Shown here: piece after piece, positions 10,337-12,920 of the stretch
Position numbering within the stretch: position 1 is the stretch's first letter
Layout of the letters: the number at the start of each line of letters is the position of its first letter
Source: Nitrospira sp. SB0662_bin_26
GTDB taxonomy: Bacteria > Nitrospirota > Nitrospiria > Nitrospirales > UBA8639
Length of the DNA: 64,000 nucleotides
Direction: 5' to 3'
Assembly (NCBI GenBank): GCA_009840285.1
Contig: VXOF01000009.1
Span: forward strand, 3-64,002
Position numbers and translations under genes: made by a program
The notes under the pieces: generated by a model
What the model was told of the DNA's origin: nothing
Seen by the model: only the letters and a program-made list of their open reading frames with translations
Database searches by the model: none

Positions 10337-11638
10337 TCATCCAGCAGCATGGTCAGACCGGCGATATCCATTTAGCTGCGTCGAGGCATCGGGAGATTCC
10401 GGTGACAACCAGTCGGGAAACGGATCGGGAAATGACCTCCACCCCTCGGTCCCCAGGCTCAACTCGGCATCCGTCAGCAAACAGGCATCCAATCTCCGAC
10501 TAAGTGCCGCTTGATCGACATTCTGTCCGATCACGACGAGTTCCTGCTGGCGGTCACCATAGACCGGATCCCAAATCGTCTCCAATCGCTTTCGCTCTTC
10601 GTCATCCACCTCCCACTCATCACGGGGAATCGTCGCATACCAGCGTCCTCCACCCTGTAAGACACCTGTCCCACCGGCCTGGGACCAGATCCCAACCCAA
10701 TCGGTACGAGAGGCCAGCCAGATAAATCCCTTTGATCGCAAAACCCCCTTCCAATTTTTCTGAACCAAAGCCCACAAACGCTCCGGATGAAAAGGCCGCC
10801 GGGCCACATAGACGAAACTCTGAATGCCGTATTCATCAGCTTCCGACCGCCATGCCCCCCGCAAGATCTGCATCCATCCCGCTGCGCGGCTCGCCCGCTC
10901 CAAATCAAACCGGTTTGTCCGCAGCACCTCCACCAAGGGCACCTGTCCCTGTTGGGCCGGCACGACCTGCGCATCCGGATTCAGTGCCCGCAGAATGGCG
11001 GTCAACTCGGCCAGTTGCGCATCCGACACCGTATCGATTTTGTTGATCACCAGCACGTCCGCAAACTCCACCTGGTCAATCAGCAGATCCGTCACCGTCC
11101 GTTCATCCTCTTCACCCAGTTCGAGCCCCCGCTCCTTCAGGTCCTCAGACGCCTGATAGTCCGACAGAAATGTTCCCGCATCCACCACGGTGACCATTGT
11201 ATCCAATCGGGCCACCGAGGAGAGCGACCGTCCCATCTCATCCTGAAAGAAAAACGTTTCGGCCACGGGCAAAGGCTCGGAAATCCCGGTGGATTCAATC
11301 AACAGATAGTCGAACCGGCCTTCCTGCGCCAACCTCTCCACTTCCTTCAACAGGTCTTCCCGCAGGGTGCAGCAGATGCAGCCGTTGCTCATCTCGACCA
11401 ACTTCTCGTCAGTGCGGCTCAATTCGGCCCCACCTTGCCCGACCAGTTTTGCGTCAATATTGACGTCACTCATGTCGTTGACGATCACCGCCACGCGTAA
11501 CCCTTCCCGGTTGTGCAAGACGTGGTTGAGTACCGTGGTTTTCCCTGCGCCGAGAAATCCCGAGAGGACCGTCACCGGCAAACACTTGTCGGAACACAGG
11601 GACTCAGGCGCGGGCTTGGCTGCTAGATTGGTCATCAT
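10337..11638 (-). CDS. COG0523-family G3E GTPase (zinc metallochaperone type, long C-terminal domain)
   Basis: Walker [10 protein letters not shown], metal motif [20 protein letters not shown]4 NKID, and a CobW_C-like C-terminal half (RPFHPERLW...). Confidence 0.9.
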
Positions 11639-11651
11639 CCGTTATCCTGTC

Positions 11652-12920
11652 CTAGTCTGAGCCTCCGTCGTTTTCTCGTGCATTAGCATGGGAGATCGCG
11701 CGGGCGAAGGGATCGTCGAACCGCCGCCAGACCGACTCCCCCTCCAGTATCTCAGAAGGCGTCAACAAACAGCGGTGAAGTTGACGACGCCAGGACGACA
11801 CATCCAATCGATAGCCGATCCAGCCGAACGCCTGCCGTCGGTCGCCGAACTCGACCGACCAATGCTCTTTCAGTTGTGTTTGGAACTCATTATCAGCCGG
11901 CCACTGAGCCCGGGGAGTGGCCACCCACCAGTCGCCCACACACTCGAAATGCCGCACTCCCGCCGTCTGTTCCAAGGAAAAGCACCGTTCCGGTTGTGAC
12001 GCAATCCAGAAATGACCTTGGCACCGCAGAATTCCCGGCCAATCGGACTCGATCAGCTCCCATAGCCGCTGCGGGTGGAAGGGACGCGTAGCTCGAAAGG
12101 CCCCCATCGCCCAATAGGACGATCGAATCGTCGGCATCGGCGCTCCCTGGATCAGCTTCGCCCAGCCTGGTTGAAAACTGATCGGCATCGAGGCAGGACT
12201 ACGCTCGTTGACAATCTGTCCCACCACATCCAACCCCTCCGCTATCGATAGAATCGTGGCTTCCGGGTTCAACGTCTCGAGCAAGGACCGGAGACGAGCC
12301 TGCTTACCCAATGACAGCCCTTCGGTTTTGGATATCACCAGTACCGTGGCATACTCCACCTGCTCTACCACCAATTCCGACACCATCCGTCCATCGTCCG
12401 TCCCACAACTCACGCCTCGGGTCTGTAAATCGTCTTCAGAATGCAGATCGTCCCATAACGTCCGGCCGTCGACGACCGTGACCAAGTGATCAAGCCACGC
12501 CTTCGATGCCAAGGGTTCGCGGTTCTCCCAGGCGTCGTTGAACACTTCGGCGACCAAGACGGGCTCGACCAGGCCCGAGCACTCGAGCAGCACCCGATCA
12601 AACCGCTGCATGTCGGCAATCGCCGTGATGGCGCTCGCCAAACTGTCGCGCAAGGAACACCCGACACACCGTTGAATCAACTCGGCCAAGACTTCACCGA
12701 GACGGAAGACCTCGATCCCCAGAGATCGACAGAAGTCCGCATCCAATCCTGCGTCGCTACGGTCATGGACCAGCACGGCCAACCGACCGGACGCCCAGCC
12801 GGCGACAACTTTCTGCACCAGCGTGCTCTTCCCGGCTCCGACAAAACCACAGACCGCGGTGACCGGAAGCCGCGTGATCTCGGCTGGACGATAGCCTTTG
12901 GGATGGATACCGGGGTTCAT
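11652..12920 (-). CDS. Divergent COG0523-family paralogue (degenerate CxCC and NKxD motifs)
   Basis: GFVGAGKST is present. The metal motif reads RCVGCSLRD and G4 reads ISKTEG. ECSGLVEP replaces ESTGxxEP. The C-terminal half is collinear with the neighbour (RPFHPQRLW). AAGGAGG lies before ATG 12920. Confidence 0.8.
   Translation of the reverse strand: MNPGIHPKGYRPAEITRLPVTAVCGFVGAGKSTLVQKVVAGWASGRLAVLVHDRSDAGLDADFCRSLGIEVFRLGEVLAELIQRCVGCSLRDSLASAITAIADMQRFDRVLLECSGLVEPVLVAEVFNDAWENREPLASKAWLDHLVTVVDGRTLWDDLHSEDDLQTRGVSCGTDDGRMVSELVVEQVEYATVLVISKTEGLSLGKQARLRSLLETLNPEATILSIAEGLDVVGQIVNERSPASMPISFQPGWAKLIQGAPMPTIRSSYWAMGAFRATRPFHPQRLWELIESDWPGILRCQGHFWIASQPERCFSLEQTAGVRHFECVGDWWVATPRAQWPADNEFQTQLKEHWSVEFGDRRQAFGWIGYRLDVSSWRRQLHRCLLTPSEILEGESVWRRFDDPFARAISHANARENDGGSD

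Follow-up and report, generated by a model that had tools for sequence, protein, structure and literature searches.

Two genes of the COG0523 (G3E) family stand next to each other on contig VXOF01000009.1 of Nitrospira sp. SB0662_bin_26, of which a stretch of 64,000 nucleotides (the window) was analysed. The first of the two, here called gene A, departs from the family signatures, while the second, gene B, keeps them. The question raised by this locus is whether A is a degenerate partner of its neighbour, a gene on its way to being lost, or a protein with a role of its own. The answer reached is that A is, with a probability somewhat better than even, a functional, anciently diverged and Nitrospiraceae-specific offshoot of ZigA, which has a remodelled metal site and acts on its own. 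A literature search returned no paper linking COG0523 with Nitrospira.

Gene A (11652..12920, minus strand) encodes a diverged COG0523/ZigA-like paralogue of 422 amino acids. Its open reading frame has AAGGAGG before the ATG, and its assignment is based on Pfam, NCBIfam and an AlphaFold2 model. Gene B (10337..11638, minus strand) encodes a zinc metallochaperone GTPase of 433 amino acids, and a spacer of 13 nt (11639..11651) separates the two. They had been described as adjacent and collinear in an earlier interpretation made from the sequence alone (the sequence-only reading). This proved exact: BLASTP aligned them at 36% identity without a single gap over 388 amino acids (E = 8e-83), including the TRPFHPQRLW region of A. 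Both proteins passed the Pfam cut-offs for cobW (PF02492; 106.7 bits for A and 193.8 bits for B, cut-off 20.7) and CobW_C (PF07683; 51.4 and 84.6 bits, cut-off 22), with A scoring roughly half of B. The curated NCBIfam model of ZigA (NF038288, cut-off 600 bits) was passed by B with 630.4 bits and failed by A with 330.9 bits. B, in which the motifs GCICC, ESTG, NKID, SEADEYG and RSKG are found, is a bona fide ZigA. Neither protein passed the model of Mrf (NF047431, cut-off 375 bits), with 156.7 bits for A and 225.6 bits for B. The AlphaFold2 model of A, obtained with an 86-sequence alignment, displayed a mean predicted local distance difference test score (pLDDT) of 87.2 and a predicted template modelling score (pTM) of 0.86, which predicts a COG0523 fold with confidence. 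The low-scoring parts were residues 1-14, residues 77-84 and the C-terminal tail. Among PDB structures, the best fold matches were the YjiA entries 4ixn, 4ixm and 1nij (E about 1e-15), followed by HypB, UreG and signal recognition particle GTPases.

The motif states of A were read by translating the exact codons (all on the minus strand). In order to tally them, A and B were aligned with 120 database relatives, in which the A clade was sampled as 67 representatives of 90%-identity clusters (66 or 67 scored per position) and canonical ZigA by 52 sequences. The Walker A motif (G1) is GFVGAGKST, residues 25-33 (12822..12848), and is intact, as had been stated; G25, G30 and K31 were found in 66 of 66 clade members and S32 in 65. 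Together with the Walker B glutamate of ECSG, it gives A the G3E signature (Walker A GxxGxGK[ST] plus Walker B Glu). The CxCC motif lies between switch I and Walker B and has been described as "family-defining and invariant" in COG0523 (PMC13001444). All three of its cysteines bind zinc in the ZigA of Acinetobacter baumannii (AbZigA), with S3(N/O) coordination (PMC11052692). It reads CVGC in A (12657..12668) and CICC in B: Cys85 and Cys88 are kept, and Gly87 takes the place of the middle cysteine. The loss of CxCC to CxxC seen by the sequence-only reading is thus real, and it is clade-wide. The middle cysteine was absent from all 67 members (Gly in 55, Ser in 11, Asp in one), the serines giving a CxSC form, and present in 52 of 52 canonical ZigAs. 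The outer cysteines were invariant in both groups.

In the Walker B motif (G3), A reads ECSG (12573..12584) where B reads ESTG. Glu113 is kept, as in all 67 members of the clade, and Cys114 follows it in 67/67 vs 0/52 canonical ZigAs. The reported replacement of ESTG or ETTG by ECSG was confirmed, but it is not unprecedented: YjiA reads ECTG, and ECxG occurs in 3 of 129 canonical representatives, so that ECSG was rejected as a unique signature. A similar refinement applies to the guanine-specificity motif G4, which reads SKTE in A (12321..12332) instead of [NST]KxD (NKID in B). The stretch ISKTEG had been taken as a loss of NKxD. Asp to Glu is indeed aberrant, whereas Ser for Asn is normal (SKxD was found in 27 of 52 canonical ZigA relatives), as is the lysine; for the copy in the window the idea of a wholesale G4 loss was dropped. 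The degeneration of G4 becomes evident when the whole clade is tallied, with the aspartate in 5/67 (Glu in 43, Ala in 10, Thr and Lys in three each, Gly in two) and the lysine in 39/67, vs 52/52 for both in canonical ZigA.

Three further differences had been overlooked. Switch I, residues 51-56 (12753..12770), is VHDRSD in A, VNDMSD in B and VNDMS[ED] in canonical ZigA. His52 was present in 66/67 clade members vs Asn in 52/52, and Arg54 in 67/67 vs Met in 50/52, with Asp53 kept. The acidic linker motif PETEEY, SEADEYG in B, is gone from A; its residue E258 has been proposed as the gate of Zn-stimulated GTPase activity in AbZigA (PMC13001444). RxKG, in beta-2 of the C-terminal domain (CTD), has been reported as the only invariant motif of that domain, with an Arg finger and a catalytic Lys (PMC13001444). 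It reads RCQG in A (12015..12026) and RSKG in B. The Arg finger was found in 66/66 members of the clade and the lysine in 54/66, with Arg in nine and Gln in three, the Gln being confined to the sublineage of the window.

In order to establish the extent of the clade, homologues were searched with A. The search returned 66 clusters at 49-95% identity, after which identity dropped to about 40%, the level of canonical ZigAs. Among 1.84 billion representatives at 50% identity, the A clade amounted to one full-length representative (749 bits), and the next protein scored 382 bits. A pattern scan over one genome per GTDB species gave 23 loci, all from Nitrospira or Nitrospirales. The carriers include N. 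defluvii-like genomes, other Nitrospira metagenome-assembled genomes and Nitrospirales metagenome-assembled genomes. Genes of the clade are present in the culturable species N. moscoviensis and N. defluvii as well. When 18 sequences of the clade were aligned, over 100 columns distributed across the two domains were invariant, and the G4 region (residues 190-212) had none. The sequence-only reading had asked for a conserved clade of the degenerate form, and this is what the 67 representatives and 23 species, restricted to Nitrospira and Nitrospirales, make up. Its own counter-case, that the motif changes were a product of misalignment, is ruled out by the identical states throughout the clade. 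As judged from these sequences, the A clade is a new and conserved branch of COG0523 in which two family signatures are broken and the predicted catalytic core is retained.

A was found to be under purifying selection. The ratio of nonsynonymous to synonymous substitution rates (dN/dS) was 0.15 (bootstrap 0.11-0.21) in a pair with a dS of 1.0, and the open reading frame was intact in 22 of 23 species at a divergence down to 50% identity. The remaining copy, on a 3-kb contig (locus L020), is split by a frameshift. A second counter-case, strain-specific decay, was ruled out by these values. In closer pairs dN/dS was 0.36-0.5 for A, vs 0.18-0.3 for B of the same genomes. A is constrained, though less tightly than B, since its dN/dS is 0.15 at long range and higher than that of B in close pairs.

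The relatives of A suggest in which order the changes arose. In a neighbour-joining tree the B-type genes of Nitrospira nest within the canonical ZigAs, and the sister group of the A clade is formed by Nitrospira paralogues, here called D type, together with P0071. The D-type genes are the last of their array and adjoin the gene of an L28 ribosomal paralogue. Cx[G/R]C is found throughout the A clade, the D type and P0071, most of which also read ECS[G/A]; hence the loss of the middle cysteine and the gain of the G3 cysteine probably predate the split between A and D. In the D type the metal motif is C[TAVI][RG]C (CTGY in the L013 copy) and the G3 motif is ECSG, ENSG or ELSG; NKxD, RSKG and the switch-I Asn are retained, so that, on present sequences, the G4 Asp has been lost and switch I altered in A alone. 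Among the best 150 representatives at 50% identity, the CxxC forms had a G3 cysteine in four cases and another residue in one, and the CxCC forms had a G3 cysteine in three and another residue in 126. This covariation is suggestive, the number of independent lineages behind it being only two or three. About eight further representatives displayed otherwise degenerate metal motifs, and the G4 Asp is additionally lost only in the A clade. P0071 itself, from a 20-kb contig of JGI sample 3300056388, is a CxGC/ECSA protein with NKID intact, and its gene overlaps that of an L31 paralogue by 4 nt. The same island contains ZIP, dihydroorotase, S14, L28 and cation-efflux genes, and no canonical COG0523 gene as a neighbour of P0071. 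In general, P0071/P0122-like proteins and the D type are encoded in the same arrays or beside L31 or L28 paralogues. In other Nitrospira genomes as many as four COG0523 genes stand in tandem, namely A, B, another canonical copy called B' and the D type, as seen at L009 (7791..12989), L010, L013, L011, L018 and L023.

The favoured reading of A can be put as follows. A would be co-transcribed with genes of cysteine-poor ribosomal paralogues, in the order S14-S18-A-B-L28, as part of a zinc-limitation island. The phosphate- and Mg-binding residues and those of hydrolysis (P-loop, switch-I Asp, Walker B Glu and the Arg finger of the CTD) are kept, which points to a protein that still works as a nucleotide-driven switch. 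The metal site appears to have been rebuilt, from the tri-thiolate CxCC to Cys-x-Gly-Cys, with Cys114 next to the Walker B Glu and His52 in switch I as candidate new ligands. With the acidic linker gone, the site would no longer gate the GTPase activity in the way proposed for ZigA. The guanine specificity may have been relaxed or changed, because the G4 loop varies freely and its Asp is mostly lost. In the sequence-only reading a change in metal or nucleotide specificity was one of the explanations of the motif pattern; a change in the metal site and in base specificity is indeed the most economical account of it, and a plausible one. A would then bind zinc or another metal with a different affinity, geometry or denticity, and its site would most likely serve sensing, regulation or a distinct client, rather than duplicate the delivery function of B. 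Since several genomes have an intact A and no B, it would act independently of B.

This picture also bears on the suggestion that A might be a pseudo-enzyme. A pseudo-GTPase is recognized by the loss of nucleotide-binding or hydrolysis residues. In the A clade the Gly, Gly and Lys of the P-loop (66/66), the switch-I Asp, the Walker B Glu (67/67) and the Arg finger (66/66) are all invariant; what appears lost is G4 and, in one sublineage, the RxKG lysine. The suggestion is thus not supported by the sequences.

Several points weigh against the favoured reading. The Gln in place of the RxKG lysine, described as catalytic, in the sublineage of the window would fit a partial loss of activity. The loop of residues 77-84, directly before CVGC and thus ahead of the supposedly remodelled metal site, is poorly modelled. 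The G3 cysteine need not be a metal ligand, because YjiA has ECTG together with an intact CxCC. Among close relatives the constraint on A is about 2.5 times weaker than that on B, and on short branches without B the confidence intervals of dN/dS for A reach 1, so that some dependence of A on B may exist. Finally, a scan for 7-n-7 AT-rich palindromes upstream of the island operons, as candidate Zur operators, gave none that was shared.

The alternative which survives best is that A remained a metallochaperone and switched its specificity towards a different metal, client or nucleotide (e.g. ATP or an alarmone) rather than its role. The retained core with a degenerate G4 is in line with it, and acidic residues dominate the G4 position (43 Glu and 5 Asp of 67), a hint of a modified base contact. 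The invariant Cys/Cys/Cys/His set would be compatible with a new four-ligand site. Moreover, paralogues with distinct clients or metals are the rule in COG0523 (CobW1/2/3; ZagA uses ZTP), and divergence of the CTD has been proposed to prevent crosstalk between paralogues (PMC13001444). On the other hand, apart from the ribosomal paralogues no gene stands out as that of a client tied specifically to A, and nothing in the data points to a particular metal. In members of Lineage I the G4 position is neither acidic nor polar (TRSAA, NRSAG), which implies that there is no single new base-recognition motif. A pure switch of specificity is therefore regarded as possible and rather unlikely.

Among known systems, A resembles ZigA and ZagA (COG0523 subfamily 1, e.g. 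ZigA of A. baumannii) in its cobW and CobW_C domains, its 36% gapless identity to B, its P-loop, its G3E-type Walker B Glu, the PFHPxRLW region, the Arg finger of the CTD and a low-zinc neighbourhood of ribosomal paralogues. It differs from ZigA in its score (331 bits vs the 600-bit cut-off), in having neither the middle Cys, the G4 Asp nor the PETEEY/E258 linker, in the changes from Asn to His and from Met to Arg in switch I, and in the Cys after the Walker B Glu. The Cx[G/R]C motif and often ECS[G/A] are common to A, the D type and the P0071/P0122-like proteins; unlike A, the latter two keep NKxD, RSKG and the switch-I Asn. With E. coli YjiA (PDB 1NIJ, 4IXM, 4IXN), the best structural match of its model, A has the ECxG Walker B in common. 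In contrast, YjiA has CxCC and [NST]KxD intact, and its sequence matches that of A only over the N-terminal 135 residues (E about 7e-8). CobW3 of Cupriavidus metallidurans is, like A, a COG0523 protein of zinc homeostasis without the internal GCxCC, and it is functional (PMC11340326). Unlike A, it has its G motifs intact and binds metals by a His-rich tail at the C-terminus; no such tail is present in A, from which the G4 Asp is gone.

A further parallel is with Mrf, the MPY recruitment factor (Rv0106 / MSMEG_6069 family). The mycobacterial Mrf gene presumably lies beside genes of cysteine-free ribosomal paralogues. An Rv0106-like sequence, identified as Mrf solely by its 562 bits with NF047431, fell as a distant outgroup in the tree. 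A was rejected as an Mrf orthologue on the basis of this position and of its score of 157 bits, below both the cut-off of 375 and the 226 bits of B. Any similarity between A and Mrf would thus be convergent, with Mrf as the closest functional analogue. The similarity includes the change from CxCC to CxxC, Mrf having CxSC (PMC2770081). The CxxC of Mrf is flanked by His and binds zinc as a sensor (PMC7431043). Mrf is destabilised by bound zinc, while its zinc-free form associates with the 30S subunit of the remodelled ribosome, recruiting a hibernation factor (PMC2770081; PMC7431043). In M. smegmatis, ZigA and Mrf are both Zur-controlled, Mrf being part of a low-zinc response that uses cysteine-free ribosomal paralogues (PMC11672702). 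In contrast to A, which keeps Walker A and the catalytic residues, Mrf has no Walker A (PMC2770081).

From this parallel a more specific proposal can be drawn, to which only a small probability is given. The A clade could be a convergent, Nitrospira-specific counterpart of Mrf, that is, a zinc sensor (Cys85, Cys88, Cys114 and His52), and not a protein that delivers zinc, coupled to a base-promiscuous NTPase switch that acts on a remodelled ribosome. Such a site would connect the metal loop with both switch II and switch I, and zinc occupancy may directly set the state of the switch. The target may be a ribosome that has been remodelled by taking up the cysteine-free S14, S18 and L28 encoded alongside A. 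If this were true, the CxGC/ECS[GA] group (A, the D type and the P0071-like proteins by L31/L28) would be an unrecognised ribosome-linked subfamily of COG0523.

A further alternative, and an improbable one, is that A is a non-catalytic or regulatory subunit which works only as a heterodimer with B. An obligate pair of a catalytic and a degenerate subunit had been advanced by the sequence-only reading, on the premise that COG0523/G3E proteins act as dimers. This premise is doubtful. The COG0523 proteins have been contrasted with UreG and HypB, which work as G-domain dimers, and modelled as self-activated, intramolecular activation by their own CTD being proposed (PMC13001444). The same study is also the source of an argument in favour, since the CTDs of ZigAs can activate a G-domain in trans (PMC13001444). 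The two genes lie 13 nt apart in one operon, and A has lost the middle Cys, the linker Glu and, in the copy of the window, the RxKG lysine, all of them features tied to the Zn-gated GTPase. An intact B directly follows A at 15 of 21 informative loci. Whether the degenerate copy always sits beside a canonical one had been posed as a check: this is usually the case, and it does not hold in the other six species, in which B was deleted or frameshifted by different events and A is intact.

These six losses count against the obligate pair. In the genome closest to the window, in which A is 98% identical (L001), a clean deletion of 1149 bp, corresponding to 11470..10322 of the window, has left a stub of 56 codons (L001 9270..9587). 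In L003 the deletion spans about 11483..10443 of the window. B is deleted with other boundaries in L004 and again in L006, A abuts the L28 gene in L019, and in L018 B is broken into four frames, A and a D-type gene on the same contig being intact. The possibility that B had moved elsewhere was addressed with the stretch encoding EDERTVTDL, for which five B genes from the close group have the same DNA sequence. A codon-degenerate scan for it matched four B-containing relatives and found no match in the complete chromosomes of L001, L004 and L006 or in the 2.2-Mb contig of L003. The genomes without B still carry a canonical COG0523 gene of another subfamily. An attempt to date these losses by how far what is left of B has decayed was given up: even intact orthologues share only about 75% identity at the 5' end of B, and the 3' remnant in L003 is 91.5% identical. 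Given these two values, the deletions may be recent.

Other observations point in the same direction. Nitrospiraceae STL-NOB2 (L031) has a B-type gene and no A within 3 kb; the loci were collected with A, so that loci without A are under-sampled. The CxGC relative P0071 stands alone, and the hydrolysis core of A is invariant. Furthermore, the identities to the window are discordant, with 53% for A and 89% for B in L023 (6779..9535) and 78% for A and 67.5% for B in L009, and the trees of A and B disagree. The discordance of L023 and L018 vs L009 and L010 suggests that either A or B was replaced laterally or underwent recombination. The dN/dS of A was somewhat higher in pairs without B (0.53-0.64) than in pairs with B (0.36-0.42), as a dependence on B would predict, and the intervals overlap. 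Taken together, the obligate heterodimer is not supported.

Least of all can A be regarded as a decaying duplicate, a pseudogene in the making with neutral motif losses: several signature residues are gone, its dN/dS in close relatives (0.4-0.65) is above that of B and one copy in 23 is frameshifted, but this reading can hardly be upheld against the 22 intact reading frames, the dN/dS of 0.15 at a dS of 1, substitutions fixed clade-wide that include the gains of Cys114, His52 and Arg54 in 66-67 of 67 members, the more than 100 invariant columns and a fold predicted with confidence.

The reading of A as an independent, remodelled ZigA offshoot is set in a distinctive genomic context. The operon, on the minus strand, begins with the gene of a long-form S14 paralogue (13316..13621; 101 amino acids, no CxxC pairs; Pfam Ribosomal_S14, PRK08881 133.9 bits). 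It is followed by that of an S18 paralogue (13070..13285; 71 amino acids, no Cys; Pfam Ribosomal_S18, E = 3.8e-24), which is too short to figure in the list of open reading frames, by A and B, and by that of an L28 paralogue (9947..10189; 80 amino acids, one Cys; Pfam Ribosomal_L28, TIGR00009). None of the three ribosomal proteins contains the zinc-ribbon CxxC pair. Synteny is maintained across the 23 loci in the order S14-(S18)-A-(B)-L28, with none to two further COG0523 genes ahead of L28 and one to four COG0523 genes per array. A second low-zinc module (18223..22895, minus strand) was found about 9 kb from A and B. It starts with a third COG0523 gene (21720..22895, minus strand; likely start at Met68, 22694), which is canonical (GCICC, ETTG, NKID and RMKG; Pfam cobW 212.6 bits) and is followed by WD40, DUF3386, MoCF-type and ZIP transporter genes. 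The island also includes genes for dihydroorotase, an M23 peptidase, FmdB-type zinc-ribbon proteins, a MerR regulator, a flavoprotein and HemB. Such a gene content is typical of Zur regulons (PMC2770081), and it is the basis on which zinc regulation of the operon is inferred. A sigma-70 scan of 9600-14400 gave no promoter-like site. The regions upstream of S14 are not conserved across the A clade, because gene order varies.

Some features of the island were recorded in their own right. HemB (6110..7138, minus strand) has an Asp-rich DVALDPYSSDGHDG site of the zinc-independent type. Near its gene, a Pyr_redox_3 flavoprotein (8458..9588, minus strand) ends in a CCGEECVC tail, and a conserved protein of 232 amino acids (7555..8253) gave no family match. 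A MerR-family regulator gene is directly followed by that of a very Cys-rich peptide of about 50 amino acids (MKDSCGCCKDGKCACKTTTCGCCCG...; 14920..15538, plus strand); the peptide has a metallothionein-like look and no Pfam or NCBIfam match. This gene pair is kept in L001-L007 and L022, in some of them inverted. A repeat of about 61 bp with an identical 29-bp core occurs upstream of hemB (7179..7239) and of the S14 operon (13901..13961), both on the minus strand. It recurs at the module junctions of related loci, e.g. three times in L007 and once ahead of the flavoprotein gene in L004. No clear palindrome was seen within it, and it is a candidate for a shared promoter/operator cassette or a recombination site. 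The copy of the repeat immediately ahead of hemB is fused to a relic, a former COG0523 N-terminus (7248..7331, minus strand), in which a P-loop Gly is changed to Trp and which overlaps the stop of the upstream open reading frame (ATGA). The same relic was found in L001 and L007, and it implies an earlier deletion of another COG0523 gene. In L001 a deletion of about 640 bp lies inside the M23 peptidase gene (window 15792..16431). Since B has been lost in related genomes by other deletions, the island appears to be a rearrangement hotspot.

The finding is of interest for the family as well as for the organism. The CxCC of COG0523 is regarded as invariant, with all three thiolates binding zinc in ZigA, and the A clade is a natural lineage without the middle one. 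Because the residues of the hydrolysis core are kept, it would offer a ready set of natural mutants for studying how metal binding is coupled to nucleotide hydrolysis. The CxxC of A, as in Mrf, together with the zinc-free ribosomal gene context, makes it conceivable that COG0523 derivatives acquired ribosome-directed zinc sensing on more than one occasion. Nitrospira are key nitrite oxidisers of wastewater treatment, soils and marine hosts, and the locus, with its arrays of one to four COG0523 paralogues, would outline a previously undescribed low-zinc response in these bacteria.

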